Shown in pieces: positions 40,700-60,808 of a DNA stretch of 64,000 bases. Origin of the DNA: Escherichia coli. Its GTDB lineage: Bacteria > Pseudomonadota > Gammaproteobacteria > Enterobacterales > Enterobacteriaceae. The stretch's first letter is position 1, and each line of letters opens with the position of its first letter. Position numbers and translations under genes: made by a program. The notes beneath the pieces were generated by a model that was given only the letters and a program-made list of their open reading frames with translations, had not been told where the DNA came from and did not search any database. Location: the NCBI RefSeq assembly GCF_044324875.1, contig NZ_CP172185.1. One strand, 5' to 3'.

Positions 40700-40845
40700 A
40701 ATAGAGTTATTTCAAATATTTATCTTTTTAATCAATGGATTAAATGCTCTTTAACATAATGGATGTGTTGTTTGTGTGATACTGTAAAGTTGGTAGATTG
40801 TGACTGGCTTAAAAAATCATTAATTAATAATAGGTTATGTTTAGA
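40700..40845 (+). promoter_or_regulatory. AT-rich CRISPR leader (promoter and IHF region) immediately upstream of the first repeat
   Basis: Sequence ...TGGCTTAAAAAATCATTAATTAATAATAGGTTATGTTTAGA abuts repeat 1; matches my memory of the E. coli type I-E leader end. Confidence 0.6.
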
Positions 40846-41709: not shown

Positions 41710-41755
41710 TTCAGGTATGTTCAGGCCGGGCAGTTTCCCGCCCGGTCTTCCTCAC

Positions 41756-43234
41756 TTACGCATTCGACCAGCTCTGGATCGAATCTTCATTCCCCAGCTC
41801 ACCATGCATCACTTCATACGATTTTTTCAGGATCACATCAGTGTGTTTGGTTAGGTCTTTGAAAATGCCTTTATTCATCGCGTTGTAGCGTTTGGCGTTG
41901 CTCTCAACAGGCATAAAGATATCTTTCACGCGAACCATTTTGTCGACAGCCGTTGCGTAATCCGGGTATAGCCCCAGACCTACCGCCGTATTAATCGCTG
42001 CCCCCAGGCTTGCACAACCATTAATGGCGTTACGGCGTGCCGGAAGGTTGAACACGTCGGCAAAAATCTGCATAAACAGATCGCTGTTCGAACCGCCGCC
42101 AGTAATGATCACATGCTTTGCAAAGTGATTCATTTCATTACACATATTGTCGTAATTGTTCTTCAGCGTCAGCGCCACGCTTTCCAGTATCGAACGATAT
42201 ATCCATGCGTAATCCATGCTGGAATCAAAGCCAATCATAATCCCGCGTTTGTACGGTTCCCACGGATTGGTCAGCCAGTCCAGCACCGTCATCAGACCAT
42301 TACAGCCTGGCGGCACACAAGAAGCTTTTTTGTTGAGTAAATCTTCCGGTGAAAGATCCTGCGCCCTGGCATCCTGAATTAACGACTCGCCTAGCATGTC
42401 GCGCAGCCAGCTCACCGTCCACATGCCTTTGCGAATACCGTAACCTTCATACAGCAAGGTTTGCGGAATAGAAGACATAATCGGCCAGTACGCTACCGGA
42501 TCTTTCGGCAGTACTTTGCCGTTCATCATCAACGCGATGTAAGTGCCAAGAGAAATTACCGCAGTTTCATCATCCAGTAACCCGGCTCCCAGTGCTTCTA
42601 CCGGTTTATCACTGGTGGTACAAACAACCGGCAGCCCAGCCGGGAAATGTGTCGCCAGCGCGGCTTGAGGAGTGATATGCCCAAGAACAGTGCCCGGCAT
42701 TTGCACATCAAACAGCATATGACGGGGGATATTAAACTTCTCCATGACTGCGGCATCTTCACTCCATGCCCAGGTCTTATAATCCACCGGCCACTGACCA
42801 AAATAGTTGGCGATATTGTCTTTAAACTCGCCGGTTAAGCGATGCGTCAGATAACCCGAAAAAGAGGTGACATATGCCACGTCAGGATTCGTATGTTCGT
42901 AAGGGCGTGTAACGCGTGCATCCTGCCAGCTAATCAACGGCGCAGCTGGCGTGCCATCGGCTTTCAATAACGCACGGCAGCAACGGATGGATCCCAGACC
43001 AATACCGACAATATCTTCTTTATTTCCGGCAAACTGACTCATCAAATCGTGACCGGCAAAGCATAATGATGCCCATAAATCGTCGTCAGGATGTTCTGCG
43101 GTATCGGCATCTGGCGTGTGCATCGGCTGCAATAAGCCTTTGCCTTCGCAAACCACATTACCTTCCAGATCGTACATCACCACTTTTGTGCTCTGACTTC
43201 CACCATCAATCCCTATGATGTATTTTTTCGACAT
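41756..43234 (-). CDS. ygcE: FGGY-family carbohydrate kinase
   Basis: 492 aa; FGGY N-terminus IGIDGGSQSTKVV. Confidence 0.9.
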   Translation of the reverse strand: MSKKYIIGIDGGSQSTKVVMYDLEGNVVCEGKGLLQPMHTPDADTAEHPDDDLWASLCFAGHDLMSQFAGNKEDIVGIGLGSIRCCRALLKADGTPAAPLISWQDARVTRPYEHTNPDVAYVTSFSGYLTHRLTGEFKDNIANYFGQWPVDYKTWAWSEDAAVMEKFNIPRHMLFDVQMPGTVLGHITPQAALATHFPAGLPVVCTTSDKPVEALGAGLLDDETAVISLGTYIALMMNGKVLPKDPVAYWPIMSSIPQTLLYEGYGIRKGMWTVSWLRDMLGESLIQDARAQDLSPEDLLNKKASCVPPGCNGLMTVLDWLTNPWEPYKRGIMIGFDSSMDYAWIYRSILESVALTLKNNYDNMCNEMNHFAKHVIITGGGSNSDLFMQIFADVFNLPARRNAINGCASLGAAINTAVGLGLYPDYATAVDKMVRVKDIFMPVESNAKRYNAMNKGIFKDLTKHTDVILKKSYEVMHGELGNEDSIQSWSNA

Positions 43235-43260
43235 GATTTTTCTCCTGTAATTTTCTGGAC

Positions 43261-44538
43261 TTACTTGCTGCTAGCCATAGCAGGGGCGCTATCAGCAGTA
43301 CGAATTTTTTGGAACAGCAAAAAGGTAAAGACGATCACCATGGCAAGCGCCGCCATGCCCATCAGCCACATATTGCGGTAGGCTTCTGCAGCGGGCAGGG
43401 TGTCTTGCCAGTAGCCGATAATCGGGTAAACGAAGACATCCGGCAGGAATCCAATCACCGAACAAATACCTACCGTGGTGCCCATAATGTAAGACGGTGT
43501 TCTCGCTTCGCCAGGGCAGGCCCAGTACAGCCCGCGTGAGGCGTAACAGGTGAATCCCAGCAGTAAAATCAGGCCAATCCCCATCGCGACCGATTGCGGG
43601 TTAGAGTTCGTGACGAGCAGGGCAGTTAACGCCAGCAAGCCGAGTACGGAAAGGATTTGGATCACGCGGGTAGGGGATTTCACTTTGCTGTAGGTGGTGA
43701 TAATGCCACCAAGTGGGCCGCACAGTGCGCGGAAGATTTTGTTGATCACAATCCCCATGTAGCTCGCCGCCACCAGCGACATGCCGTACATTTCGGTCAG
43801 ATAGTTGGTGGAGTAACTCAGAATGGCGTAGATGGTGAAGACACCAAAAATCACCATGCTGCAATACCAGGTGGTGCTGATGCGCAAAACAGCCAGGATG
43901 TCGCTAAGCTGGAATGACTGTTTTTCTTCGTTATTGGTATTGCACAGGTTGTTGTTATCGCTAACAAAAAACCAACACAAAATGCCCAGCAGAATGTAAA
44001 CCACACTATAGATAATAATGACCGTTTTCAGGCTGGCGCTGTCATCCGGTGCAAAGCGAGAAAAGACCCACATGGTAAACACCGCCAGCGACATTACACC
44101 GACGCCGCGCAGCCCTTCCATCCAGCCCATAATTTTCCCTTGCTCGCTATGATCGCCCAGCAACGAGGCGGCTTTAATCGACACCGACCACAGCATTAAA
44201 ATAGTGGTTATCGCAAAGGCGACCTGAATACAGAGCATTACCCACAGCGGTGGATATGTTGCCATTAACAGACCCAGTAATCCGGTAATGATCATCGCGG
44301 AAGTAATCATTTTGCGGTGTGAAAATTTATCGGCAATAACGCCGCTGGGGGCATAAAGAATAATAGCCGCAATACCAAAGGTACTCATTATTAAACCTAT
44401 CTCGGTATTGCTGAATCCCATAAATTTCGCCATGGGAATTTGATAAATATAACGTAAATAAGCCAGGTCGAAACTAACGCCGCCGCTAAAACTAATTATC
44501 GCGAGGGTTATCCAACGGCGATATGAGTTGTGTTGCAT
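43261..44538 (-). CDS. yqcE: MFS transporter
   Basis: 425 aa, 12 TM helices; upstream of ygcE in the same orientation. Confidence 0.9.
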   Translation of the reverse strand: MQHNSYRRWITLAIISFSGGVSFDLAYLRYIYQIPMAKFMGFSNTEIGLIMSTFGIAAIILYAPSGVIADKFSHRKMITSAMIITGLLGLLMATYPPLWVMLCIQVAFAITTILMLWSVSIKAASLLGDHSEQGKIMGWMEGLRGVGVMSLAVFTMWVFSRFAPDDSASLKTVIIIYSVVYILLGILCWFFVSDNNNLCNTNNEEKQSFQLSDILAVLRISTTWYCSMVIFGVFTIYAILSYSTNYLTEMYGMSLVAASYMGIVINKIFRALCGPLGGIITTYSKVKSPTRVIQILSVLGLLALTALLVTNSNPQSVAMGIGLILLLGFTCYASRGLYWACPGEARTPSYIMGTTVGICSVIGFLPDVFVYPIIGYWQDTLPAAEAYRNMWLMGMAALAMVIVFTFLLFQKIRTADSAPAMASSK

Positions 44539-44562
44539 ATCGTATTCCCATTTGTAATAGAC

Positions 44563-44610
44563 AAAAAAAAGAGAAAAGTAAGCCGCCCTTTCAGGTGGAT
44601 TACTTTTCTC
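44563..44610 (-). terminator. Leader intrinsic terminator about 25 nt upstream of the yqcE start codon (minus strand: GAGAAAAGUAA-18 nt loop-UUACUUUUCUC + U8)
   Basis: Perfect 11-bp stem followed by 8 U on the minus strand, inside the 5' leader of yqcE-ygcE. Confidence 0.6.
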
Positions 44611-44659
44611 AGGTCTCTAGTAATTGCAATAAGAAATAACATGGAAAGCAGTGGTGTTG

Positions 44660-44675
44660 TGTGAGAGTAATCACG
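44660..44675. promoter_or_regulatory. CRP-like site TGTGAGAGTAATCACG, positioned about -41.5 relative to the inferred minus-strand yqcE promoter
   Basis: TGTGA-N6-TCACG (9/10 half-site match). Confidence 0.45.
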
Positions 44676-44716
44676 CTTCTGCTTTTTAAAATTATTTGAC
44701 AATTCGAATATCACAC

Positions 44717-44732
44717 TGTGATTACGATCACA
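44717..44732. promoter_or_regulatory. CRP consensus site TGTGATTACGATCACA, about -41.5 relative to the inferred ygcW promoter (extended -10 TGATAAAAT at 44751-44759)
   Basis: Perfect TGTGA-N6-TCACA. Confidence 0.55.
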
Positions 44733-44786
44733 TTAGCGATTATGCCCTTATGATAAAAATTATCTCCAGTTACCAGAGATAATGAG

Positions 44787-44832
44787 AAAGGTAACTTCCC
44801 TCTCGCGGGGGAAGTTACCTTTCTTTTTTTTT
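44787..44832 (+). terminator. Strong leader intrinsic terminator 25 nt upstream of the ygcW start codon (AAAGGTAACTTCCC-loop-GGGAAGTTACCTTT + CTTTTTTTTT)
   Basis: Perfect 14-bp stem plus a 9-T run, between the predicted promoter and the ygcW SD/ATG (44847/44857). Confidence 0.75.
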
Positions 44833-44856
44833 GCCTTACGGAAATTGGAGCTAACT

Positions 44857-45642
44857 ATGTCAATCGAATCTCTCAATGCGTTCTCAATGGATTTTTTCTC
44901 CCTGAAAGGCAAAACCGCAATTGTTACCGGCGGGAATAGCGGTTTAGGCCAGGCATTTGCCATGGCGCTGGCCAAAGCAGGCGCAAATATCTTTATTCCA
45001 AGCTTCGTTAAAGATAACGGCGAAACAAAGGAAATGATTGAAAAACAGGGTGTTGAGGTGGACTTCATGCAGGTGGATATCACCGCAGAAGGCGCGCCGC
45101 AGAAGATAATCGCCGCCTGTTGCGAACGTTTCGGTACCGTCGATATTCTGATTAACAATGCCGGTATTTGTAAGCTGAATAAGGTGCTGGACTTCGGTCG
45201 TGCCGACTGGGACCCGATGATTGATGTGAACCTGACCGCCGCATTCGAGTTAAGCTATGAAGCTGCAAAAATTATGATCCCGCAGAAAAGCGGTAAAATC
45301 ATTAATATCTGTTCATTATTCTCTTACTTAGGTGGACAATGGTCACCTGCATATTCTGCCACTAAACATGCTCTTGCCGGATTCACCAAAGCTTATTGTG
45401 ATGAACTAGGTCAATATAATATTCAGGTAAATGGTATTGCCCCTGGCTATTATGCAACAGATATTACGCTGGCGACACGCAGTAATCCAGAAACTAATCA
45501 GCGCGTTCTTGATCATATTCCGGCAAACCGTTGGGGCGATACTCAGGATTTAATGGGCGCAGCCGTATTCCTCGCAAGTCCGGCTTCAAATTATGTTAAC
45601 GGGCATTTATTAGTGGTCGATGGCGGTTATTTAGTGCGCTAA
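44857..45642 (+). CDS. ygcW: Short-chain dehydrogenase/reductase (KduD/2-deoxy-D-gluconate 3-dehydrogenase-like)
   Basis: 261 aa from ATG 44857 (SD ggag); Rossmann motif TGGNSGLG; ORF track extends to 44782 across the terminator, which is implausible. Confidence 0.85.
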   Translation: MSIESLNAFSMDFFSLKGKTAIVTGGNSGLGQAFAMALAKAGANIFIPSFVKDNGETKEMIEKQGVEVDFMQVDITAEGAPQKIIAACCERFGTVDILINNAGICKLNKVLDFGRADWDPMIDVNLTAAFELSYEAAKIMIPQKSGKIINICSLFSYLGGQWSPAYSATKHALAGFTKAYCDELGQYNIQVNGIAPGYYATDITLATRSNPETNQRVLDHIPANRWGDTQDLMGAAVFLASPASNYVNGHLLVVDGGYLVR

Positions 45643-45711
45643 TCCATAACGGTGGTTTCTGTTTTCTCTTATTAATGATTATTCCATTTTTATTATCAGG
45701 AAGGAATTACT

Positions 45712-47166
45712 ATGTCTTTATCTCGCGCAGCGATTGTCGACCAGCTAAAGAAAATTGTTGGTGCAGATCGCGTAATTACCGATGAAACAGTATTAAAGAA
45801 GAACAGTATTGACCGTTTTCGCAAATTTCCGGATATTCATGGCATTTATACTTTGCCGATTCCGGCAGCGGTCGTAAAACTCGGTTCCACAGAACAAGTA
45901 TCCCGTGTGCTGAATTTTATGAATGCGCACAAAATTAACGGTGTGCCGCGTACCGGTGCTTCCGCTACCGAAGGTGGGCTGGAAACCGTTGTGGAAAACT
46001 CGGTGGTGCTCGACGGCTCTGCCATGAATCAAATCATTAATATTGATATTGAGAATATGCAGGCCACGGCGCAATGCGGAGTTCCGCTGGAAGTGCTGGA
46101 AAACGCGTTGCGTGAAAAAGGTTACACCACGGGGCATTCTCCGCAGTCAAAGCCGCTGGCGCAGATGGGCGGCCTGGTAGCAACCCGCAGTATCGGGCAG
46201 TTCTCCACACTCTACGGCGCAATCGAAGATATGGTCGTTGGTCTGGAAGCAGTATTGGCTGATGGCACCGTAACACGCATTAAAAACGTACCACGCCGCG
46301 CGGCAGGCCCGGACATTCGTCACATCATCATCGGCAACGAAGGTGCATTGTGCTATATCACTGAAGTAACAGTGAAAATCTTTAAGTTCACCCCGGAAAA
46401 CAACCTCTTCTACGGCTATATCCTGGAAGACATGAAAACCGGCTTCAACATCCTACGTGAAATCATGGTGGAAGGGTATCGTCCGTCGATCGCTCGTTTG
46501 TATGACGCTGAAGATGGCACCCAACACTTCACCCATTTTGCCGACGGAAAATGCGTGCTGATCTTTATGGCTGAAGGTAACCCTCGCATTGCGAAGGCGA
46601 CGGGCGAAGGGATTGCTGAAATCGTGGCACGTTACCCGCAATGCCAGCGAGTGGACAGCAAGCTGATCGAAACCTGGTTTAACAACCTGAACTGGGGACC
46701 GGATAAAGTAGCTGCCGAACGTGTGCAGATCCTCAAAACCGGCAACATGGGCTTTACCACCGAAGTGTCCGGCTGCTGGAGCTGCATTCACGAAATCTAC
46801 GAAAGCGTTATTAACCGTATTCGTACCGAGTTCCCGCACGCCGACGACATCACCATGCTGGGCGGTCACTCCTCTCATAGCTATCAGAACGGCACCAACA
46901 TGTACTTCGTCTACGACTACAACGTCGTTGACTGTAAGCCGGAAGAGGAAATCGACAAGTACCACAATCCGCTCAACAAAATCATCTGCGAAGAAACCAT
47001 TCGCCTCGGTGGTTCGATGGTGCACCACCACGGTATCGGTAAACATCGCGTTCACTGGAGCAAACTGGAACACGGCAGCGCGTGGGCGTTGCTGGAAGGG
47101 CTGAAAAAGCAGTTCGATCCTAACGGCATTATGAATACGGGTACTATCTATCCGATTGAAAAATAA
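45712..47166 (+). CDS. ygcU: FAD-linked oxidase (GlcD / alkyl-DHAP synthase-like)
   Basis: 484 aa; FAD-binding PCMH domain plus C-terminal oxidase domain. Confidence 0.9.
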   Translation: MSLSRAAIVDQLKKIVGADRVITDETVLKKNSIDRFRKFPDIHGIYTLPIPAAVVKLGSTEQVSRVLNFMNAHKINGVPRTGASATEGGLETVVENSVVLDGSAMNQIINIDIENMQATAQCGVPLEVLENALREKGYTTGHSPQSKPLAQMGGLVATRSIGQFSTLYGAIEDMVVGLEAVLADGTVTRIKNVPRRAAGPDIRHIIIGNEGALCYITEVTVKIFKFTPENNLFYGYILEDMKTGFNILREIMVEGYRPSIARLYDAEDGTQHFTHFADGKCVLIFMAEGNPRIAKATGEGIAEIVARYPQCQRVDSKLIETWFNNLNWGPDKVAAERVQILKTGNMGFTTEVSGCWSCIHEIYESVINRIRTEFPHADDITMLGGHSSHSYQNGTNMYFVYDYNVVDCKPEEEIDKYHNPLNKIICEETIRLGGSMVHHHGIGKHRVHWSKLEHGSAWALLEGLKKQFDPNGIMNTGTIYPIEK

Positions 47167-47259
47167 TGTGTCAGGCAGCGTTCCGCGATGACGGAGCGTT
47201 GCCTTTTCGGCTTCTCAGGCGAGAAGCCGTTCTTATTACCGGACAATGAAGGGGTAAAG

Positions 47260-48597
47260 ATGAACACTTCACCGGTGCGAATGGATGATTTACCGCTTAA
47301 CCGTTTTCACTGTCGAATTGCTGCGCTCACTTTCGGCGCACACCTGACCGACGGTTATGTTCTAGGCGTCATTGGTTACGCCATTATTCAGCTTACGCCC
47401 GCCATGCAACTGACGCCGTTTATGGCGGGTATGATCGGCGGCTCGGCGCTCCTTGGTTTGTTTCTTGGCAGCCTGGTTCTTGGGTGGATCTCCGACCATA
47501 TTGGTCGGCAAAAAATCTTCACCTTCAGCTTTTTGCTGATTACGCTCGCTTCGTTCTTGCAATTTTTTGCCACCACGCCAGAGCATCTTATTGGATTGCG
47601 CATTTTGATCGGCATTGGTCTGGGAGGCGATTACTCAGTCGGTCACACCTTGCTGGCTGAATTTTCCCCGCGCCGCCATCGCGGTATTTTGCTGGGCGCA
47701 TTCAGTGTGGTGTGGACCGTAGGCTATGTGCTGGCAAGTATTGCCGGACATCACTTTATTACCGAAAGCCCGGAGGCCTGGCGCTGGCTGCTGGCATCAG
47801 CGGCGTTACCAGCCTTGCTGATTACGCTGCTACGTTGGGGCACGCCGGAATCGCCACGCTGGCTACTGCGCCAGGGGCGTTTTGCTGAAGCTCACGCTAT
47901 CGTGCATCGCTACTTTGGTCCCCATGTTTTACTGGGCGATGAAGTGGCAACGGCGACCCATAAACACATCAAAACATTGTTCTCTTCGCGCTACTGGCGG
48001 CGCACAGCGTTTAACAGCGTCTTCTTTGTCTGCCTCGTAATCCCATGGTTTGTGATTTATACCTGGCTGCCAACTATCGCCCAAACTATTGGTCTGGAAG
48101 ATGCGCTGACAGCCAGCCTGATGCTTAATGCGTTGTTAATTGTGGGCGCGCTGCTGGGATTAGTTCTGACGCACCTGCTGGCACATCGCAAATTTTTGCT
48201 GGGAAGTTTTTTGCTGCTGGCGGCAACGCTGGTCGTGATGGCCTGTTTGCCTTCCGGCAGTTCATTAACGCTGCTGCTTTTTGTTCTCTTCAGCACCACC
48301 ATTTCGGCAGTCAGTAATCTGGTGGGCATTTTGCCTGCGGAAAGTTTTCCTACTGACATTCGCTCGCTGGGCGTCGGTTTTGCCACCGCCATGAGTCGGT
48401 TGGGCGCGGCAGTAAGTACGGGCCTGCTGCCGTGGGTGCTGGCGCAGTGGGGAATGCAAGTCACCTTATTGCTCCTGGCGGCAGTGTTGTTGGTTGGTTT
48501 TGTCGTGACCTGGCTATGGGCACCAGAAACCAAAGCACTCCCGCTGGTGGCGGCGGGAAATGTAGGAGGTGCGAATGAACATTCTGTTAGCGTTTAA
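47260..48597 (+). CDS. ygcS: MFS sugar/metabolite transporter
   Basis: 445 aa from ATG 47260 (SD aagggg); ORF track start 47188 is likely over-extended. Confidence 0.85.
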   Translation: MNTSPVRMDDLPLNRFHCRIAALTFGAHLTDGYVLGVIGYAIIQLTPAMQLTPFMAGMIGGSALLGLFLGSLVLGWISDHIGRQKIFTFSFLLITLASFLQFFATTPEHLIGLRILIGIGLGGDYSVGHTLLAEFSPRRHRGILLGAFSVVWTVGYVLASIAGHHFITESPEAWRWLLASAALPALLITLLRWGTPESPRWLLRQGRFAEAHAIVHRYFGPHVLLGDEVATATHKHIKTLFSSRYWRRTAFNSVFFVCLVIPWFVIYTWLPTIAQTIGLEDALTASLMLNALLIVGALLGLVLTHLLAHRKFLLGSFLLLAATLVVMACLPSGSSLTLLLFVLFSTTISAVSNLVGILPAESFPTDIRSLGVGFATAMSRLGAAVSTGLLPWVLAQWGMQVTLLLLAAVLLVGFVVTWLWAPETKALPLVAAGNVGGANEHSVSV

Positions 48598-49354
48598 AGC
48601 CGAACCGGATGTCGGAATGCTGGCGGAAAAAGAGTGGCAGGCGGCGGCTCAGGGTAATAGCGGACCGGATGTTTCGCTTCTGCGAAGTTTACTCGGTGCT
48701 GATGAACAGGCTGCCGCCGCGCTGCTGTTGGCGCAGAGAAAAAACGGTACGTCGATGTCTTTAACCGCGTTGAGCATGGGGGATGAACGGGCGTTGCACT
48801 GGCTGCGCTATCTCATGGCTCTTGGGTTTGAGGAAGCTGTATTGCTGGAGACGGTGGCAGATCTGCGCTTTGCGCCGGAATTTGTCGCTCGCCATATTGC
48901 CGAATGGCAGCGTCAGAATCCGCTGGATCTGATAATTACCGGCTGCCAAAGCAGCGAAGGGCAGAATGGGCAAACGCCATTTTTGCTGGCGGAAATGCTG
49001 GGCTGGCCCTGCTTCACCCAGGTGGAGCGTTTTACTCTCGACGCGCCGTTTATCACCCTTGAACAGCGTACTGAAAACGGGCTGCGCTGTTGCCGGGTTC
49101 GCTTGCCTGCGGTGATTGCCGTGCGTCAGTGCGGTGAAGTGGCCTTGCCAGTACCGGGAATGCGTCAGCGAATGGCGGCGGGGAAAGCAGCAATTATCCG
49201 TAAAACTGTTGCTGCCGAATTGCCAGCGATGCTGTGTCTGCAACTGGCAAGAGCAGAGCAACAACGCGGAGCGACGCTGATTGATGGGCAAACGGTAGCA
49301 GAAAAAGCGCAAAAGCTATGGCAGGACTATTTACGCCAAAGGATGCAGCCATGA
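48575..49354 (+). CDS. ygcR: Electron transfer flavoprotein beta-subunit-like (FixA-like)
   Basis: 259 aa from ATG 48575 with SD aggagg; overlaps the ygcS end. Confidence 0.85.
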   Translation: MNILLAFKAEPDVGMLAEKEWQAAAQGNSGPDVSLLRSLLGADEQAAAALLLAQRKNGTSMSLTALSMGDERALHWLRYLMALGFEEAVLLETVADLRFAPEFVARHIAEWQRQNPLDLIITGCQSSEGQNGQTPFLLAEMLGWPCFTQVERFTLDAPFITLEQRTENGLRCCRVRLPAVIAVRQCGEVALPVPGMRQRMAAGKAAIIRKTVAAELPAMLCLQLARAEQQRGATLIDGQTVAEKAQKLWQDYLRQRMQP

Positions 49355-50211
49355 ATATCGCAATTGTGACAATAAATCAGGAGAATGCCGCAATAGCGAG
49401 CTGGCAGGCGGCGCAGGATTTCAGCGGTTGTACCCTGGCGCACTGGAAGATTGAACCTCAGCCCGCTGTGGCGGAACAGGTGCTGGATGCGCTGGTGGAA
49501 CAGTGGCAGCGAACGCCTGCGGACGTTGTTCTCTTTCCGCCGGGAACGTTTGGCGATGAACTGTCGACCCGGCTGGCCTGGCGTTTACATGGTGCAAGCA
49601 TCTGCCAGGTGACTTCGTTAGATATTCCAACCGTAAGCGTGCGCAAATCCCACTGGGGAAATGCGCTAACGGCGACGCTGCAAACAGAAAAACGCCCGCT
49701 ATGCCTTTCCCTGGCGCGTCAGGCGGGAGCAGCGAAAAACGCCACGTTGCCCTCTGGTATGCAGCAACTGAACATTGTCCCAGGTGCGCTTCCCGACTGG
49801 CTGGTTAGCATAGAGAATCTGAAAAATGTTAGCCGCGACCCATTAGCTGAAGCCAGACGGGTGCTGGTGGTGGGGCAGGGCGGAGAGGCAGATAACCAGG
49901 AAATCGCTATGCTGGCAGAAAAGCTGGGAGCCGAAGTGGGCTACAGTCGGGCACGAGTGATGAACGGTGGCGTTGATGCCGAAAAAGTGATTGGTATTTC
50001 TGGACATCTGCTGGCACCTGAGGTGTGTATTGTTGTTGGCGCTTCCGGCGCAGCAGCGTTAATGGCGGGCGTACGCAATAGCAAGTTTGTGGTGGCGATT
50101 AATCATGACGCCAGCGCGGCGGTATTTTCACAGGCAGATGTTGGCGTGGTTGATGACTGGAAAGCGGTGCTGGAGGCTCTGGTGACAAACATTCACGCAG
50201 ATTGCCAATAA
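49351..50211 (+). CDS. ygcQ: Electron transfer flavoprotein alpha-subunit-like (FixB-like)
   Basis: 286 aa; ATGA overlap with the ygcR stop. Confidence 0.85.
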   Translation: MNIAIVTINQENAAIASWQAAQDFSGCTLAHWKIEPQPAVAEQVLDALVEQWQRTPADVVLFPPGTFGDELSTRLAWRLHGASICQVTSLDIPTVSVRKSHWGNALTATLQTEKRPLCLSLARQAGAAKNATLPSGMQQLNIVPGALPDWLVSIENLKNVSRDPLAEARRVLVVGQGGEADNQEIAMLAEKLGAEVGYSRARVMNGGVDAEKVIGISGHLLAPEVCIVVGASGAAALMAGVRNSKFVVAINHDASAAVFSQADVGVVDDWKAVLEALVTNIHADCQ

Positions 50212-50212
50212 C

Positions 50213-50330
50213 GTGCTGCCGGATGATCCTGCCTACGGTTCTGGGCTGGGGACTTGTAAGCCTGATAAGACGCGTCAAGCGTCGTATCAGGCGCTGAATG
50301 TCGGATGTGGCGTGCAGCCTACAAATCACA
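50213..50330. repeat. Cluster of REP elements (GCCGGATGATCCTGCCTAC...; GCCTGATAAGACGCGTCAAGCGTCGTATCAGGCG; GTCGGATGTGGCGTG)
   Basis: Multiple REP palindromes with the GCCTGATAAGACGCG...CGCATCAGGC signature between convergent ygcQ and ygcP. Confidence 0.55.
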
Positions 50331-50357
50331 CAAATTCAACTCGTTACGAGTATCCCG

Positions 50358-50933
50358 TCAAAGCAATTTTTTCGCTAACGTCCAGACCCCGGTATTCGTG
50401 GTGGAAAGCGCCACAACACCCGCGTTAATCGCATTACGCGCATCTTCTTCATCGCACACCAGCCCGCCGGCAATCAGCGGTTGGCGGATTTTCTCCGTCA
50501 CCCAGCCTAGCACTTTAGGCATACAGCCTGGCAGGATCTCAATACAATCCGGATTCGATTGCGCAACTTGCTTATCAATGTTGTGAAACGAAATCGAATC
50601 AACAATAAACAGGCGATGAATACAGAAAAAACCTTCCGCTCTTGCCGCTTTTAGCATCGATGCTTTCGTGCTGATAATGCCGTCCGCCTCGGTCACCAGT
50701 TTCAGAAACTGAATCACCACTTCTTTGTTCGATGCGCCTTCCAGCAAATCAACATGAATAAAGGCATATTTTCCGGCGTTTTTAATCTTTTTAACGATAT
50801 TACTGATGGTGCAGATATTGCCGTACAACACGGAAATAAACTGGCATTCAGAGTCGATTGCCAGTTGCAGGCTGGCATTATCTTTAACGGCAGCAATCAC
50901 CGGATTCTGGCGGAGCAGGTGTAAGAGGGGCAT
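50358..50933 (-). CDS. ygcP: GlpP-family (glycerol-3-phosphate-responsive antiterminator-like, PF04309) putative RNA-binding antiterminator
   Basis: 191 aa; shares B. subtilis GlpP hallmark blocks (HVDLLEG, GIISTK, HRLFIVDS, PDCIEILPG, GGLV...A...GVVALSTTN). Confidence 0.85.
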   Translation of the reverse strand: MPLLHLLRQNPVIAAVKDNASLQLAIDSECQFISVLYGNICTISNIVKKIKNAGKYAFIHVDLLEGASNKEVVIQFLKLVTEADGIISTKASMLKAARAEGFFCIHRLFIVDSISFHNIDKQVAQSNPDCIEILPGCMPKVLGWVTEKIRQPLIAGGLVCDEEDARNAINAGVVALSTTNTGVWTLAKKLL

Positions 50934-50949
50934 AAATTATCCTTATTAT

Positions 50950-51210
50950 TTATCCAAAGCGGTAGGTGATGCCGAATCCGGAAGGCGGATAGTGCCACTG
51001 TTGTAGCGTTTTTTCATCGCACAGCAAACGGCAGGTGCCGCACTCCAGACAATTACGATAATCAACGTGCAAATCACCCTCCGGTGTGAGCGAAAAAAGA
51101 CCAGCCGGACAAGCGTTAATCAACTGTTGTGCCGTCTGGCGCTCAACGGAGTCTGCCGGAACAATATGTGGCGCATCAGCAGCGCGCCAGAGATTACGGG
51201 CTACAGACAT
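50950..51210 (-). CDS. ygcO: FixX-like ferredoxin (4Fe-4S)
   Basis: 86 aa from ATG 51210 (SD aggag); Cys motif CLECGTCRLLCD; 10-nt overlap with the ygcN stop. Confidence 0.8.
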   Translation of the reverse strand: MSVARNLWRAADAPHIVPADSVERQTAQQLINACPAGLFSLTPEGDLHVDYRNCLECGTCRLLCDEKTLQQWHYPPSGFGITYRFG

Positions 51211-52472
51211 CGAATACTCCTGACAACATCGCCCGCCAGATGCCACAGGCCATGACGACGTAAATGACGCCAGAATAACTGGCGCAGCGGTGGAACAGGT
51301 TTATCACCCTGATCCCATAAATCACGGGAAATATCCTGCATTAACGCAGGCCACGCCCGATACCAGCCAGGGCGTTGCAAAAGCGCCGGAACATGCTGAT
51401 AACGCTGTAAAACATCCCACAGCAGGCTGCGCTCTACGTTGTGATGATAAAGCGGAAACAGATTTTGCGGCTCGCGGTGCTGGCAGGCGCTTATTAGCGT
51501 TTGTGCCGCCGCCTGCGCGCCAGTTAGCGCCATATCCATGCCGCGCACGGAAATTCCGGTATTGACGCAACTGCGCAACGCATCGCCCACCAGCAGTCAG
51601 CCGTTACCGGCGTATTGCATCGGCATACTGTGTAAGCCACCTTCTGGCACCAGATGCGCACCATACTCCAGTGATTCCGTGTTTTTGATAAGCGGGCGCA
51701 CTGCCGGATGCGTTTTAAAGCGAGCCAGCAGCTCGCTTGCCGGAACACGACTTTGCGTAAGGGAAGAGAGCGGGCAAACAATCCCTAACGAGAGCGTTTG
51801 TTGATTAGTATAAAGAAATGCGCCGCCGGGTAAGTCATCACAGATCCCGCCGCTGAACAGCAACGCTGCGCCTTCGTTATTCTCCAGATGAAAACGTTCT
51901 TCAATAGCGGATGTTTCCAGCGACAGCACTTCTTTGATCCCCAACGCCATCGCTTCGCCAGCAGGACGAGTCACTAACCCGTGACGTTCAGCCAGGACGC
52001 TGTTGGCACCTTCTGCCAGCACCACATAACGGGCGCGGAGAATATCGTCACCACAAATGACACCACACACCCTGCCGTTTTCTTCATACAGCGCATCCAC
52101 CGTCGCACCGGGGATGCATTCGACACCTTCTTTTTCGGCTTCGGCAACCAGCCACGGATCGAACCGTGCACGTAATACACTCCAGGATTCACCGCCGGGC
52201 TGTAAGCTGGAAAACGTCGTTGCGCCATCCGGCGTTAGCAGAGAAAGGCTTTCGTGAGTGATGCGTCGTTCAAGAGGCGCGGTCAGATGAAATTGCGGGA
52301 GGAGTTCCGCGAGCGCATGGGTGTATAAACGCCCGCCGGAAAGATTTTTGCTGCCGGGGATTTCAGCGCGTTCCAGTAACAGAACGGACAAACCTGCCCG
52401 CGCGCAGCGTAAAGCACAAGCGGTACCTGCTATACCCGCACCAATAATAATAATGTCGCAGTTGTCTTCCAT
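51201..52472 (-). pseudogene. ygcN: FixC-like FAD-dependent oxidoreductase (ETF-quinone oxidoreductase-like) interrupted by an in-frame TGA at 51597-51599
   Basis: ORFs 51597..52502 and 51201..51590 are in the same frame separated only by TGA; joined length from MEDNCD (52472) is 423 codons, equal to intact K-12 YgcN; N-terminal FAD motif GAGIAGTACA. Confidence 0.75.
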
Positions 52473-52549
52473 GTCATGCCCCAGATATCCAGAACACAAC
52501 ACCCTAACATGGCGTTACTTAAGGGAAATTGACCGCCGACACACTCTTA

Positions 52550-52915
52550 TCATTCGCCGCGATAGATACAGCCTGCAGTACAGGTTTCTTTTACCATCAC
52601 CGCACTTAACAGCGGCACAACGGGTTTAACCTGATCCCAAATCCATTTTGCTAAAACTTCGCTGGTTGGGTTTTCCAGACCTGGAATATCATTGAGATAA
52701 TGGTGATCGAGGCGCTCATAAGTTGGCTTAAACGCCGCTTTCAGTTCAGCGAAATCGATAATCCAGCCCGTATGCGGATCGACCTCCCCGGTAATTTCCA
52801 GTCGCACCATAAAGGAATGCCCGTGCAGGCGACCACATTTATGCCCTTCCGGGACGTGTGGTAAGCGGTGAGCGGCTTCGAAGGTGAAATCTTTAAATAA
52901 CGTGGTGGACATCAT
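52550..52915 (-). CDS. queD: 6-carboxy-5,6,7,8-tetrahydropterin synthase QueD
   Basis: 121 aa from [19 protein letters not shown]; PTPS motifs (CGRLHGHSF). Confidence 0.9.
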
Positions 52916-53230
52916 AATTTCTCTACAGGACGATAAAACCGCCGTAGAGTACCGGAAAGGCTGTTTTTTCGCATTATCTAAAACGACTTTGTTGCGCAAA
53001 ATCGCTGATTTATCTTATTGATGGGCAATATTCATTTGTTTTTCATTGGGTTGGTTAATCTATTTTGTTGTTAAAGACTATTGCTAAAACAGGTTAGTCG
53101 ATTTGGTTATTAGTTATCGCTATCCCGTCTTTAATCCACACCGTTCACCCCGTTAACCTTACCTTCTCTTCTGTTTTATGGGCGCTGACAGGGCGCAGAA
53201 ACAGCTTTGCTTACTGGAACATAACGACGC

Positions 53231-55030
53231 ATGACGACACAGGTCCCACCTTCCGCGTTGCTTCCGTTGAACCCGGAGCAACTGGCACGCCTTCAGGCGG
53301 CCACGACCGATTTAACTCCCACCCAGCTTGCCTGGGTTTCTGGCTATTTCTGGGGCGTGCTCAACCAGCAGCCAGCTGCGCTTGCAGCGACGCCAGCGCC
53401 CGCCGCAGAAATGCCGGATATAACTATTATCTCCGCTTCGCAAACCGGCAATGCGCGCCGGGTTGCTGAAGCATTACGCGATGATTTATTGGCGGCAAAA
53501 CTGAACGTTAAGCTGGTGAACGCGGGCGACTATAAATTCAAACAAATCGCCAGCGAAAAACTGCTTATCGTGGTGACGTCAACGCAAGGGGAAGGGGAAC
53601 CGCCGGAAGAAGCCGTCGCGCTGCATAAGTTCCTGTTCTCCAAAAAAGCGCCAAAGCTGGAAAACACTGCATTTGCCGTGTTTAGCCTCGGCGATAGCTC
53701 TTATGAATTTTTCTGCCAGTCCGGGAAAGATTTTGACAGCAAGCTGGCGGAACTGGGCGGTGAACGCCTGCTCGACCGTGTCGATGCCGACGTTGAATAC
53801 CAGGCTGCTGCCATCGAGTGGCGCGCCCGCGTGGTTGATATTCTGAAGTCCCGTGCGCCTGTCGCGGCACCTTCGCAATCCGTCGCTACTGGCGCGGTAA
53901 ATGAAATCCACACCAGCCCGTACAGCAAAGACGCGCCGCTGGTGGCGAGCCTCTCTGTTAACCAGAAAATTACCGGGCGTAACTCTGAAAAAGACGTTCG
54001 CCATATCGAAATTGACTTAGGTGACTCGGGCCTGCGTTACCAGCCGGGTGACGCGCTGGGCGTCTGGTATCAGAACGATCCGGCACTGGTGAAAGAACTT
54101 GTCGAACTGCTGTGGCTGAAAGGCGATGAAACTGTCACCGTTGACGGCAAAACGCTGACCCTGAGCGAAGCGCTCCAGTGGCACTTTGAACTCACCGTCA
54201 ACACCGCGAATATTGTTGAGAACTACGCCACGCTTACCCGCAGCGAAACGCTGCTGCCGCTGGTGGGCGATAAAGCGAAGTTACAGCATTACGCCGCGAC
54301 CACGCCGATTGTTGACATGGTGCGTTTCTCTCCGGCGCAACTGGATGCCGAAGCGCTGATTAACCTGTTGCGCCCGCTGACCCCGCGCCTGTATTCCATC
54401 GCCTCCTCGCAGGCGGAAGTCGAGAACGAAGTGCACGTTACCGTTGGTGTGGTGCGTTACGACGTGGAAGGCCGCGCCCGTGCCGGTGGTGCCTCCAGCT
54501 TCCTCGCGGATCGTGTGGAAGAAGAGGGTGAAGTCCGCGTCTTTATCGAACATAACGACAACTTCCGCCTGCCCGCTAACCCGGAAACCCCGGTGATCAT
54601 GATTGGCCCTGGCACCGGCATCGCGCCGTTCCGTGCCTTTATGCAGCAGCGTGCTGCCGACGAAGCGCCGGGTAAAAACTGGCTATTCTTTGGCAACCCA
54701 CACTTTACGGAAGATTTCCTCTACCAGGTGGAGTGGCAGCGCTACGTGAAAGAAGGCGTATTGAGCCGCATCGATCTTGCCTGGTCGCGCGACCAAAAAG
54801 AAAAAGTTTATGTACAAGACAAACTGCGCGAACAGGGCGCGGAGCTGTGGCGCTGGATCAATGACGGTGCCCACATTTATGTCTGCGGCGACGCTAATCG
54901 CATGGCGAAAGACGTTGAGCAGGCACTTCTGGAAGTGATTGCCGAATTTGGTGGCATGGACACCGAAGCGGCGGATGAATTTTTAAGTGAGCTGCGCGTA
55001 GAGCGCCGTTATCAGCGAGATGTCTACTAA
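53231..55030 (+). CDS. cysJ: Sulfite reductase [NADPH] flavoprotein alpha component CysJ
   Basis: 599 aa; flavodoxin plus FAD/NADPH domains. Confidence 0.95.
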
Positions 55031-56742
55031 TGAGCGAAAAACATCCAGGGCCTTTAGTGGTCGAAGGAAAACTGACAGACGCCGAGCGCATGAAGCTTGA
55101 AAGCAACTACCTGCGCGGCACCATTGCGGAAGATTTAAACGACGGTCTGACCGGTGGTTTTAAGGGCGACAACTTCCTGCTGATCCGCTTCCACGGCATG
55201 TATCAGCAGGATGACCGCGACATCCGCGCTGAACGTGCTGAACAGAAGCTGGAGCCGCGTCATGCGATGCTGCTGCGCTGTCGTCTGCCGGGTGGGGTGA
55301 TTACCACCAAACAGTGGCAGGCGATCGATAAATTTGCCGGTGAAAACACCATTTATGGCAGCATTCGCCTGACCAACCGCCAGACGTTCCAGTTCCATGG
55401 CATTCTGAAAAAGAACGTCAAACCGGTGCACCAGATGCTGCACTCAGTCGGTCTTGATGCGCTGGCGACCGCCAACGACATGAACCGTAACGTACTCTGT
55501 ACCTCGAACCCTTACGAGTCGCAGCTGCACGCGGAATCCTATGAATGGGCGAAGAAAATATCTGAACATCTGCTGCCGCGTACCCGCGCGTATGCGGAGA
55601 TCTGGCTCGATCAGGAAAAAGTCGCCACCACCGATGAAGAACCGATCCTCGGTCAGACTTATTTGCCGCGTAAATTCAAAACCACGGTAGTGATCCCGCC
55701 GCAGAACGATATCGATCTGCACGCCAACGACATGAACTTCGTGGCGATCGCCGAAAACGGCAAGCTGGTGGGCTTTAACCTGCTGGTGGGCGGTGGGCTT
55801 TCCATCGAGCACGGCAACAAGAAAACCTACGCCCGCACGGCGAGTGAGTTTGGTTATCTGCCGCTGGAGCATACGCTGGCGGTGGCAGAAGCCGTCGTGA
55901 CGACTCAGCGCGACTGGGGTAACCGTACCGATCGTAAAAATGCCAAAACCAAATACACGCTGGAGCGCGTGGGGGTTGAGACGTTTAAAGCGGAAGTGGA
56001 GCGTCGCGCGGGGATCAAATTTGAACCGATCCGTCCGTATGAGTTTACCGGACGCGGCGATCGTATTGGTTGGGTTAAGGGCATTGATGATAACTGGCAC
56101 CTGACGCTGTTTATCGAAAATGGTCGCATCCTTGATTATCCGGGGCGTCCGCTGAAAACTGGCCTGCTGGAGATCGCGAAGATCCACAAAGGTGATTTCC
56201 GCATTACGGCGAACCAGAATCTGATCATCGCCGGTGTGCCGGAAAGCGAGAAAGCGAAGATCGAGAAGATCGCCAAAGAGAGCGGGTTAATGAATGCCGT
56301 CACGCCGCAGCGTGAAAACTCAATGGCCTGCGTGTCATTCCCGACTTGCCCGCTGGCGATGGCCGAAGCCGAGCGTTTCCTGCCGTCTTTTATCGACAAC
56401 ATCGATAATTTAATGGCGAAACATGGTGTCAGCGATGAGCATATCGTGATGCGTGTAACAGGCTGCCCGAACGGTTGTGGTCGCGCGATGCTGGCGGAAG
56501 TGGGCCTGGTGGGTAAAGCGCCGGGTCGCTACAACCTGCATCTTGGCGGCAACCGCATTGGGACACGTATCCCACGGATGTATAAAGAAAACATCACCGA
56601 GCCGGAAATCCTGGCGTCGCTTGATGAACTGATAGGGCGCTGGGCGAAAGAGCGCGAAGCGGGTGAAGGCTTCGGCGACTTTACGGTGCGTGCGGGCATC
56701 ATTCGCCCGGTGCTCGATCCGGCGCGCGATTTGTGGGATTAA
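55030..56742 (+). CDS. cysI: Sulfite reductase [NADPH] hemoprotein beta component CysI
   Basis: 570 aa; ATGA overlap with the cysJ stop. Confidence 0.95.
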
Positions 56743-56744
56743 CC

Positions 56745-56800
56745 ATCAGCCCGGTCTTGTAGGCCTGATAAGACGCGTGAGCGTCGCATCAGGCAAGGCA
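56745..56800. repeat. REP element between cysI and cysH (GCCTGATAAGACGCGTGAGCGTCGCATCAGGC)
   Basis: Canonical REP palindrome. Confidence 0.55.
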
Positions 56801-56815
56801 AACAGTGAGGAATCT

Positions 56816-57550
56816 ATGTCCAAACTCGATCTAAACGCCCTGAACGAACTGCCGAAGGTAGATCGCATTCTGGCGCTGGCAGAAACTAACGCCGAACTGG
56901 AAAAACTGGATGCTGAAGGCCGCGTTGCCTGGGCGCTGGATAATCTGCCCGGTGAATATGTACTTTCTTCCAGTTTCGGCATTCAGGCGGCGGTGAGCCT
57001 GCATCTGGTGAATCAGATTCACCCGGATATCCCGGTGATCCTGACCGATACGGGTTATCTGTTCCCGGAAACCTACCGCTTTATTGACGAGTTAACGGAC
57101 AAACTCAAGCTCAACCTGAAAGTGTACCGCGCTACCGAAAGCGCCGCCTGGCAGGAAGCGCGCTACGGCAAACTGTGGGAGCAGGGTGTTGAAGGCATTG
57201 AAAAGTACAATGACATCAACAAAGTCGAACCGATGAACCGGGCGCTGAAAGAACTGAATGCGCAAACGTGGTTTGCTGGCCTGCGCCGCGAACAATCCGG
57301 CAGTCGCGCCAATTTACCGGTGCTGGCAATTCAGCGTGGCGTATTTAAAGTGCTGCCGATTATCGACTGGGATAACCGAACGATATATCAGTATCTGCAA
57401 AAACATGGCCTGAAATATCATCCATTATGGGACGAAGGATATTTATCCGTCGGTGATACCCATACAACCCGTAAATGGGAACCCGGCATGGCGGAAGAAG
57501 AAACGCGTTTCTTTGGCTTAAAAAGGGAATGTGGGCTGCACGAAGGGTAA
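56816..57550 (+). CDS. cysH: Phosphoadenosine phosphosulfate (PAPS) reductase CysH
   Basis: 244 aa from [14 protein letters not shown]; ORF track's upstream extension to 56663 runs through the REP and is implausible. Confidence 0.95.
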
Positions 57551-57815
57551 AATATCGTACCGCTTAATAAACGTCTCTGTCTGAAAAGATGGGGGCGTTT
57601 TTATTTTGCGAGCAGCATTCCTGATTTTAAACGTGAACGCCGCTGGAAGAATTATCAAGTATAGAATGGCGTTGGGTGCTTGAGGCTGTCTGGCGTTAAG
57701 CATTCGCGAGGTTCCAGATGGACAAAAGCCCCAGGCGATATTTCTATCAACCTGAGGCCAGCGTTCGAACCTAAGCAATTCGAATGTTAGTCTCTTCTTT
57801 GCAGGGAGGCAAGAC

Positions 57816-57968
57816 ATGCTGACAAAATATGCCCTTGTGGCAATCATCGTACTGTGTTGTACAGTACTGGGATTCACGCTGATGGTAGGCGACTCGTTGT
57901 GTGAGTTGAGTATCAGAGAACGTGGTATGGAGTTTAAGGCAGTTCTCGCTTACGAATCGAAGAAGTAG
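57816..57968 (+). CDS. Hok/Gef-family type I toxin (HokE-like), 50 aa
   Basis: [50 protein letters not shown] is near-identical in pattern to HokE ([31 protein letters not shown]...KAVLAYEPKK); single TM plus conserved Cys; 3' GC hairpin CGCGGGGG-UAAAA-CCCCGCG at 57975-57994; below the ORF-track size cutoff. Confidence 0.8.
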
Positions 57969-58319
57969 CCACCACGCGGGGGTAAAACCCCGCGTATTGA
58001 ATTGTGATGGTTTGGTCTCCTGCACCCTTTTTTAATTTATATTGTTTATGTGAATATTATGCCTATGTTTATTATTCATATATATTACGGATGAAAATTA
58101 TTTGATTATTCATAATGTGCAAAATGGCATCTGAATCGATCGCAGTTTGGCATTCGAATCGATCATGATTTGGCATCCATCTCCGATCACAGTTTGGCAT
58201 CACAATCGATCACGATTTGGCATGCTTCCGATCATTGATTGGCATCCTGCCAGTCACTCCGGGAATTAACTCTTTTCACCACAGTCTCCATTGCCGTGTT
58301 TAAACCAGTGGAGACGTCA

Positions 58320-59885
58320 ATGTCCAGAAAGAGAAAATCCAGGAGCACTATGGAAACCTGTTTTAAGATCCTTCAGCTCAAGTTCGACAAGAAGCTGACT
58401 AACCGTTGTATCGGACTGACGTTACACATCAGCGCCTCAACCGTTTTTGAGGTTCTTGCCCGCTTCAAAGCCTCTTCTCTGTCATGGCCATTACCTGCTG
58501 ATATATCCCATGACACGCTGGAGAAACTCATTTTTCCGCCCAAAGACACCTTTGCATCAGAGCTTGTAATGCCTGACATGTTGTACTTCGATACGGAAAT
58601 GAGAAAACCAGGTGTGACGCGGCAACTGTTGTGGATGGAATACAAGGCACAGGCGGGTAACAAAGCGATGGGATACTCGCACTTCTGCCGTTGCTACCGG
58701 GAGTGGAAAAAAACGCGACGTCTCTCCATGCGCCAGGAGCATCGTGCCGGCGAAAAGCTTTTTATCGACTTCTGTGGTCCTACGGTTCCTGTTATTAATC
58801 CGGACACCGGTGAGATACGCCGCGTGGCAATCTTCGTGGCCGTAATGGGGGCGTCCAACTATACCTACGTTGAAGCGTGCGAAGGTCAGGACATGATGTC
58901 ATGGTTAAATGCCCACAGCCGTTGCCTGACCTTCCTGGGCGGCGTACCGAAGCTGCTCATCCCCGATAACCTCAGAAGCGCAGTGAAAAAGGCCGATCGA
59001 TATGAGCCTGTCATCAACGACAGTTATCAGGCACTGGCTGAGCACTATGGCACGGTTATCATCCCGGCCCGACCACGCAAACCTAAAGATAAACCAAAAG
59101 CAGAAAACGGCGTCCTCATCGTTGAACGATGGCTTCTTGCCCGCATCCGTAATGAAACCTTCCACACGCTCAGGGCGCTGAATGCGCGCCTTAGGGAGTT
59201 ACTGACAGACATGAATAACCGGCCAATGAAGGGGTACGGCAATCAAACCCGTGCAGAACGCTTCCGCATACTGGATGCGCCAGCACTCTCTCCGCTGCCT
59301 CTGGCACCTTATGAATACACGGAATACAAAGCTGTGAAGGTTGGCCCTGACTACCACGTTGAATATGCCCGTCACTGGTACTCCGTTCCACACGAACTGG
59401 TCGGTCAGCGTCTGTCACTGAAGGCGGGGCAGTCGGTGGTACAGCTCTGGCACAAGGGGCAGTGTGTGGCGCAACATCCGCGCAGCACACATGAATATAA
59501 ACACACAACCAATCCGCTTCACATGCCAGAGCGCCACCGGCAGCACGGGACATGGACACCGGAACGCCTGATCGAGCAGGGAAAACGTACGGGCCCGTCC
59601 ACAGGCCGGGTGGTTGAATCCATGCTGAAGGCAAAACCCCATCCGGAACTGGCTTATCGTGCAGTTCTGGGGCTGCTGGCACTTCAGAAAAAATACGGCC
59701 CGGAACGGCTGGAAAAGGCCTGTTACGTTGCCCTGCACTATAACGCCCCTGACAGACGCTTTATCGACAATCTGCTGCGTCACCATCGGGAGAACCTGGA
59801 GCTTCCATTATCCCGCCAGGGCGAACAACATCCGGCATATGCTTCAGAGCATGAAAACCTGCGTGGTCCGGGCTACTACCACTGA
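58320..59885 (+). CDS. istA: IS21-family transposase IstA (HTH plus DDE integrase core)
   Basis: 521 aa from ATG 58320 (SD ggagacg); integrase-core-like region (FIDFCGP...VAVMGASNYTYVEACE). Confidence 0.85.
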   Translation: MSRKRKSRSTMETCFKILQLKFDKKLTNRCIGLTLHISASTVFEVLARFKASSLSWPLPADISHDTLEKLIFPPKDTFASELVMPDMLYFDTEMRKPGVTRQLLWMEYKAQAGNKAMGYSHFCRCYREWKKTRRLSMRQEHRAGEKLFIDFCGPTVPVINPDTGEIRRVAIFVAVMGASNYTYVEACEGQDMMSWLNAHSRCLTFLGGVPKLLIPDNLRSAVKKADRYEPVINDSYQALAEHYGTVIIPARPRKPKDKPKAENGVLIVERWLLARIRNETFHTLRALNARLRELLTDMNNRPMKGYGNQTRAERFRILDAPALSPLPLAPYEYTEYKAVKVGPDYHVEYARHWYSVPHELVGQRLSLKAGQSVVQLWHKGQCVAQHPRSTHEYKHTTNPLHMPERHRQHGTWTPERLIEQGKRTGPSTGRVVESMLKAKPHPELAYRAVLGLLALQKKYGPERLEKACYVALHYNAPDRRFIDNLLRHHRENLELPLSRQGEQHPAYASEHENLRGPGYYH

Positions 59886-59901
59886 CAGAAGGAACAACAG
59901 T

Positions 59902-60657
59902 ATGAGTGATAACCTGTTAAACAAACTGACCCAACTGAAACTCCCGGCGATGGCCGGGAGCCTGATACGGCAGCGGGAAACGCCTCAGACCTACGACGAA
60001 CTGTCGTTCGAGGAAAGGCTGACGCTGCTGGTTGATGACGAGCTTCTGAGCAGGGAAAACAGCCGTGTGGCACGGTTGAGAAAAAATGCCGGCCTGAAAT
60101 ACCAGGCAACACCGGAAGGGCTGCGCTATCCGGCCTCAAGAGGTCTGCGGGCTGAACAGATGAGAGAACTGCTGAACGGCCACTACATAACCCACAGGAA
60201 AAACCTGCTGATAACCGGTCCGACAGGATGTGGCAAGAGCTGGATAGCCAATGCGCTGGGCGAACAGGCATGTCGACAGAAACACAGCGTCCGGTACTGT
60301 AGAACCGGGCGATTACTGGAACAACTGGCTCAGGGACGTGTTGATGGCAGCTGGCTGAAATATCTGAAACAGTTGCAAAAAATACAGGTTCTAATCCTGG
60401 ACGATCTGGGGCTGGAACAGTTAAGTAACGCCCAGTGTAATGACCTTCTGGAGCTCATAGAGGATCGTTACGGACAAAGCAGCACGATAGTGGTAAGCCA
60501 GTTCCCGGTAGATAAATGGCATGGTCTGATGGAGAACCCAACAACAGCAGATGCCATCCTGGACAGACTGGTACATAACTCACACCGAGTGGTCCTTCAG
60601 GGAGAGTCACTGAGGAAAAATCCCCCGGTAGTGGAAAGCAGCGAAAAAACGCGTTAA
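59902..60657 (+). CDS. istB: IS21-family helper ATPase IstB (Walker A GPTGCGKS)
   Basis: 251 aa from ATG 59902 (SD aaggaac); AAA+ IstB family. Confidence 0.85.
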   Translation: MSDNLLNKLTQLKLPAMAGSLIRQRETPQTYDELSFEERLTLLVDDELLSRENSRVARLRKNAGLKYQATPEGLRYPASRGLRAEQMRELLNGHYITHRKNLLITGPTGCGKSWIANALGEQACRQKHSVRYCRTGRLLEQLAQGRVDGSWLKYLKQLQKIQVLILDDLGLEQLSNAQCNDLLELIEDRYGQSSTIVVSQFPVDKWHGLMENPTTADAILDRLVHNSHRVVLQGESLRKNPPVVESSEKTR

Positions 60658-60808
60658 AAAGCGGTAGAAAAAGTTAAGTTCCCGGTTGATCGAATGGATG
60701 CGAATCGCTGATCGGACTTCGATGCCAATCCGTGATCGAATAGAGCGGAATACGCACATAATGTAAATATTTTATTGAACGATATATATCACAGATAATT
60801 TTTAATAT

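Follow-up and report, generated by a model that had tools for sequence, protein, structure and literature searches.

The ygcN locus and its interrupted reading frame

The window, a 64,000-nucleotide stretch of Escherichia coli DNA, is 97–99.5% identical to complete E. coli genomes. It runs from fuc through gud, barA, relA, eno, queE, a CRISPR region and the ygcE-to-ygcN segment to queD, cysJIH, hok and cas3. Both the identity and this gene order mark it as chromosomal E. coli DNA. Around ygcN the neighbours are the same in the window and in genomes with an intact gene: queD, ygcN, ygcO, and ygcP follow each other, and ygcQ, ygcR, ygcS, ygcU, and ygcW lie on the opposite strand. The island also encodes a FGGY kinase (ygcE), a GlcD-like protein (ygcU), an SDR protein (ygcW), and MFS proteins (ygcS/yqcE), a gene content that suggests sugar-acid and polyol substrates. 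Between 15.6 and 64 kb, 35 other genes were compared and every one is full length, among them ygcE, yqcE, ygcW, ygcU, ygcS, ygcR, ygcQ, ygcP, and ygcO. The features discussed below are collected in the table.

Features of the window in and around ygcN, with positions counted from the first base of the window
Feature	Position	Strand	Basis or remark
CRISPR array, type I-E, small	40834-41121		between queE and ygcE
CRISPR array, type I-E, small	41572-41713		between queE and ygcE
ygcR (ETF beta-like) and ygcQ (ETF alpha-like), intact	48575..50211	+	presumed electron donors to YgcN/YgcO
ygcO, FixX-like ferredoxin, 86 aa, intact	50950..51210	-	ATG overlaps the ygcN end by 10 nt (51201..51210)
ygcN, disrupted (pseudogene), 423 codon positions and terminal TAG	51201..52472	-	translation, collinearity with E. 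coli 042, tblastn
C-terminal remnant, untranslated, 131 codons and stop	51201..51596	-	matches the NCBIfam profiles PRK10015 and FixC at their positions 301-425
GD (Gly296-Asp297) of the conserved LLVGDA FAD motif, four codons past the stop	51582..51587	-	orthologs; alignment with 7KOE chain C
Premature TGA, codon 292, ancestral TGG (Trp)	51597..51599	-	TGG in 15/15 Escherichia/Enterobacteriaceae orthologs
Mutated base, gene nucleotide 876, G to A (plus strand C to T)	51597..51597	-	comparison with intact-allele assemblies
Remaining N-terminal frame, 291 aa, Rossmann/GxGxxG FAD domain and ETF-QO ubiquinone-binding-like domain	51600..52472	-	Pfam; public contigs
cysJ codon 63, GGT to GAT (Gly63Asp)	53418		private to the window
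IS21-family element (istA/istB, ISSso4-like)	58119-60756		between the hok/gef gene and cas3
cas3, intact 899-aa ORF	60809-63508		annotated as frameshifted in 042 and O17_K12a

The ORF list has two entries in one frame and on one strand, 51597..52502 (301 aa, counted from an upstream GTG) and 51201..51590 (129 aa). The true start of ygcN is the ATG at 52472 and not that GTG. When 52472..51201 is translated, its 424 codons comprise 291 sense codons, a TGA, 131 further sense codons, and the normal stop, so that the protein reads MEDNCD...QYAGNG before the internal stop at codon 292 and LLVGDALRS...IRCL after it. The minus-strand bases at the site are GGT AAC GGC TGA CTG CTG GTG GGC GAT; the three letters of the TGA fall on 51599 (T), 51598 (G), and 51597 (A). 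Both the description in the earlier note of two ORFs in one frame parted by a TGA and its joined length of 423 codons from MEDNCD agree with these data, the latter matching the annotated 423-aa ygcN of E. coli 042. The window gene is collinear with that of 042 end to end, and in tblastn residues 1–423 align with a single internal stop. In 5,121 of the 5,426 complete E. coli genomes one annotated gene covers both halves end to end at 98–99% nucleotide identity, which excludes a chance ORF pattern. Hence, the split ORFs are one interrupted gene. Gene callers split off a 112-aa downstream ORF that starts at the ATG at 51539, within the C-terminal remnant. Compared with intact E. coli YgcN (b2766-type; 'FAD-dependent oxidoreductase' in RefSeq; 423 aa; WP_001305786.1 in 042), which is the same gene at the same locus with the same neighbours, the window differs in having TGA instead of TGG at codon 292 and a product of 291 instead of 423 aa.

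Two further features of the region, both lying between queE and ygcE, are CRISPR arrays. Five repeats (GAGTTCCCCGCGCCAGCGGGGATAAACCG, with a 61-bp period) make up one of them, and the other is formed by two or three degenerate copies. Both were missed by Tandem Repeats Finder, which was run on 40400-41800, and were found by a separate repeat search.

Ancestral codon, progenitor allele, and other disrupted alleles

The earlier note had proposed an ortholog alignment for finding the ancestral sense codon, and such an alignment gives a uniform answer. Codon 292 is TGG in E. coli 042, and TGG (Trp) followed by LLVGD is found in 15 of 15 orthologs from Escherichia, Scandinavium, Enterobacter, and other Enterobacteriaceae. 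The orthologs were taken from GTDB species representatives, which comprised E. coli, 'Shigella flexneri', E. albertii, E. ruysiae, E. whittamii, and Escherichia sp., together with Scandinavium, Enterobacter sp., and one Enterobacteriaceae genome. In three distant Firmicutes homologs the aligned residue is Leu, and a stop at codon 292 is absent from all of these divergent sequences (15 Enterobacteriaceae orthologs and three Firmicutes homologs). The presence of TGG throughout the orthologs indicates that the stop is the derived state, reached from TGG by a G-to-A transition at nucleotide 876 of the gene. Across the genus, intact ygcN has a median pairwise dN/dS of 0.076. On these comparisons, ygcN is normally kept by purifying selection, and the stop is a loss in one clone.

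The progenitor can be recognized among public assemblies. When the stop is replaced by Trp, the resulting protein is present unchanged in the collection (P0031, UPI0004DAB830), on 36 contigs in 74 blocks; GCA_044906065.1 and GCA_018168095.1 are examples of genomes with this allele. We fetched seven E. coli assemblies with the intact allele, and all seven have G, not A, at nucleotide 876. In six of them this base is the sole difference from the window over 1,272 nt, and the seventh has one more SNP. The agreement extends further in four of the seven, where the 6.0-kb block from ygcS to cysJ (47431..53417) matches the window except at that base. One assembly with the intact allele (L025), compared with the window along roughly 11.5 kb of the ygc island, differs at two positions, of which the second is codon 81 of ygcS. 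The change at that codon, GGA to GGT, is synonymous and is a second SNP shared by the TGA lineage. Complete genomes are more distant. A 61-mer across the stop has no exact match among complete E. coli genomes, with seven genomes one base off, and the 5,426 complete RefSeq genomes of E. coli contain neither the TGA allele nor the progenitor haplotype, the best identity being 98.6% over 1.4 kb. A single G-to-A transition turned the Trp292 codon into TGA; the ygc-island haplotype on which it arose is intact in other respects and is still in circulation in E. coli.

The ygc-island haplotype (about 41.9–53.4 kb) is itself nearly identical in genomes whose flanks differ by 1–6%, as seen when seven genomes (L025-L031) were compared over 41200-58118 of the window. 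The differing flanks are cysJIH on one side and, on the other, the 41.2–41.9 kb segment beside the CRISPR remnant. A near-identical island between diverged flanks suggests that recombination has produced a mosaic around the CRISPR/cas-cys region.

Other disrupted ygcN alleles occur in Escherichia. An unrelated E. coli lineage (L023; ENA ERZ843206, 3001-3876) has TAG at the same Trp292 codon. Its allele differs from that of the window at 83 sites over ygcN-ygcO, which marks its stop as an independent nonsense mutation at codon 292. The protein cluster also contains frameshifted forms of 311–316 aa and a 276-aa form, and their sites of disruption differ. These alleles are likewise loss-of-function, but arose as independent events on different allele backgrounds, whereas the TGG-to-TGA change of the window has spread clonally to about 118 contigs. 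Three E. albertii ygcN products (P0003, P0004, and P0007; 364–373 aa) belong among these disrupted forms, too. Their first 291 residues are shared, after which they run on into unrelated sequence (...CATLGAA(L/I)NTSVGLRLYPDY...), and this suggests that ygcN was joined to another gene, by deletion or rearrangement, at nearly the position of the stop.

Carriers of the TGA allele and readings of the stop

In the public assembly collection, the exact 291-aa product is found on about 118 contigs, spread over 121 blocks. Its carriers are mostly Logan assemblies of SRA runs and include one NCBI record, SRB26725.1, whose 112-aa downstream companion ORF is SRB26724.1. Two carriers from different SRA runs were compared with the window over longer distances. 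Along 16.5 kb, the contig L002 (SRR33412997) has 99.994% identity with the window; for L003 (SRR31121952) the figure is 99.992% along 12.4 kb. In both, ygcN-ygcO is identical to that of the window, TGA included. Exact-pattern scans of GTDB species representatives and of JGI metagenome contigs returned no match to the TGA allele, and the allele is therefore confined to isolate data (Logan, NCBI). The earlier note had named a sequencing error as its alternative. An error in sequencing or assembly, with TGG in the true genome, is conceivable in that the difference is a single base. However, the identical truncated product and DNA recur in many independently sequenced runs and in the NCBI record, the same base stands in 99.99%-identical surroundings in L002 and L003, and the ygcS marker is common to the lineage. 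We therefore reject this reading and give it hardly any credence. The earlier note had also held that the same TGA in many genomes would suggest recoding and not decay. Carriers are indeed many, but recoding does not follow from their number, since they are near-clonal (99.99%) and not divergent orthologs.

Programmed recoding, with UGA read as selenocysteine or as a conserved readthrough site, has in its favour that UGA is the selenocysteine codon and that E. coli has the machinery for selenocysteine insertion. In contrast, a SECIS stem-loop directly 3' of the UGA is not seen. The 68 nt from the TGA fold at -23.5 kcal/mol, compared with -24.1 ± 2.8 for shuffled sequences (z = 0.20), and thus form no stable hairpin. 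The Rfam scan (E-value mode, E ≤ 10) found no SECIS family and no other match except a spurious one to a snoRNA. Orthologs have Trp at the position, never Cys, selenocysteine, or a stop, and the Firmicutes homologs with their Leu likewise have neither Cys nor selenocysteine; UGA is not conserved in divergent orthologs. One base separates the TGA allele from the intact circulating allele, and the other lineage has UAG, not UGA, at the same codon. The earlier view that selenocysteine is unlikely and that a SECIS-like hairpin is lacking thus holds, and we regard recoding as vanishingly improbable. A functional split gene is very unlikely, too. Translation would have to restart at the GTG at 51590, three codons past the stop, or at the ATG at 51539, and the two fragments would have to form an active enzyme. 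In-frame starts do lie close downstream, and callers annotate the 112-aa ORF. Yet neither start is preceded, by reading, by a Shine-Dalgarno-like sequence, the break, which falls within the FAD-binding fold, parts a strand from its GD motif, and no ortholog is naturally split at this position. In the protein cluster, the remaining truncations stem from frameshifts at scattered sites, as decay predicts.

A further reading refines the main explanation more than it opposes it. Near-cognate Trp-tRNA(Trp) could misread the UGA, and trace wild-type YgcN would keep the pathway partly working. Of the stop codons in E. coli, UGA is the leakiest, the base following the stop is C, and UGAC is reportedly the weakest termination signal in this species. 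As the misreading tRNA is tRNA(Trp) and the original residue is Trp, readthrough would rebuild the exact wild-type protein. In E. coli K-12, UGA readthrough, in which Trp-tRNA(Trp) stands against RF2, amounts to about 2% at 37 °C and 4% at 25 °C (PMC10570021). On the other hand, the enzyme is probably weakly expressed, a few per cent of it may have no effect, and polarity would also reduce the mRNA. Moreover, the K-12 figures are inflated by the weak RF2 variant of that strain, with readthrough in wild strains probably lower, and prfB lies outside the window. The tRNA scan of the window found no tRNA, and hence no suppressor tRNA. We consider it unlikely, with an outside chance, that leaky translation sustains the pathway. 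Similarly doubtful is the extension by which the allele would be a conditional hypomorph, whose readthrough level varies with temperature and cAMP and whose residual YgcN may make the mutation nearly neutral, letting it spread clonally. The TGA allele may be a strong hypomorph instead of a null.

We are thus highly confident in reading the stop as a recent, lineage-specific nonsense mutation at Trp292 of ygcN that truncates the protein to a very probably inactive fragment. As judged from the compared alleles, the TGA allele is a recent, clonally inherited allele with predicted loss of function.

The comparison with carriers brought out two other differences within the window. The 2.6-kb IS21-family element, which sits just upstream of the intact cas3, is 99.5–100% identical to copies elsewhere in E. 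coli and has an 8-bp target duplication (CATAATGT-like). It is not in the sister contig L002, which is otherwise 99.99% identical, nor in any other comparator, and its absence from all of them makes it an insertion private to this genome. The other difference is the cysJ change, directly ahead of a flavodoxin-type loop. Codon 63 is GGT in thirteen comparators including L002, and it is the sole mismatch between the window and L002 over 16.5 kb. Gly63Asp is thus a mutation specific to this strain or else a sequencing error.

The truncated YgcN and the ygc island

In Pfam searches YgcN matches DAO (61–64 bits), FAD_binding_2/3, and, at residues 176–273, ETFQO_UQ-bd, the last with 30.6–31.5 bits compared with a cut-off of 27.7. 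A FAD-binding Rossmann fold (GxGxxG) and an ETF-QO-type domain are hence both found. Against NCBIfam, intact YgcN of 042 scores 363.9 bits on FixC (PRK10157), whose cut-off is 610, and 377.9 bits on PRK10015, whose cut-off is 466. These scores below both cut-offs place YgcN, by profile, in a paralogous subfamily and not in FixC itself. The best solved relative is FixC of the Thermotoga maritima FixABCX complex (7KOE chain C), which aligns with residues 4–418 (E = 2e-56). FixC, as represented by this chain and by E. coli PRK10157, has homology to YgcN over the full length and has the N-terminal GxGxxG and the GD motif in common with it. YgcN resembles FixC also in its partners, which are a FixX-like ferredoxin and ETF alpha/beta-like genes, and differs from it in scoring below the FixC cut-off and, in the window, in being truncated.

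The GD motif contacts FAD in folds of the glutathione-reductase-2 / p-hydroxybenzoate-hydroxylase type. It is conserved in all orthologs examined, and the GDA motif of 7KOE chain C aligns with residues 296–298 of YgcN. This alignment bears out the earlier description of a FixC-like FAD oxidoreductase truncated right before its GD motif. The stop removes the C-terminal 131 residues, which is 31% of the chain, and standing four codons ahead of the GD motif it leaves the window YgcN without a complete FAD-binding fold. Ribosomes would stop at codon 292 and release a 291-residue fragment. Given the loss of the GD motif and of 131 residues, we infer that this fragment is very probably inactive as an ETF-quinone-oxidoreductase-like enzyme.

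The effect of the stop may reach beyond ygcN. A FixX-like ferredoxin gene and ETF alpha/beta-like genes lie near ygcN. YgcO matches FixX with E = 1e-21, and ygcO, ygcQ, and ygcR all score under equivalog cut-offs. The start of ygcO lies 10 nt inside the end of ygcN (ATGTCTGTAG), and translation of ygcO is probably coupled to that of ygcN. Because ygcO starts inside the last ygcN codons, early termination 393 nt upstream would uncouple its translation, probably lowering the level of the FixX-like ferredoxin, and Rho polarity may add to this. A scan for promoters and terminators over 50300-53250 gave counts at chance level. With YgcN truncated, it is a reasonable inference from homology that the electron route from YgcRQ to YgcNO, which the earlier note had expected to fail, would be broken. 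Our literature search on ygcN and ygcO found no functional study and one incidental mention in a gene list.

Taken by its features, the allele is an ordinary nonsense pseudogene. Events of this kind are well known, this instance is undescribed, and its sequence was already public as two ORFs. The records SRB26725.1 (291 aa) and SRB26724.1 (112 aa) are better annotated as one ygcN pseudogene, and beyond annotation the TGA allele is of little importance. Base 51597 is a marker of a clonal E. coli lineage that is absent from the 5,426 complete RefSeq genomes. The same haplotype with and without the stop constitutes a natural near-isogenic pair, by means of which the role of the ygc (FixABCX-like) island could be sought.
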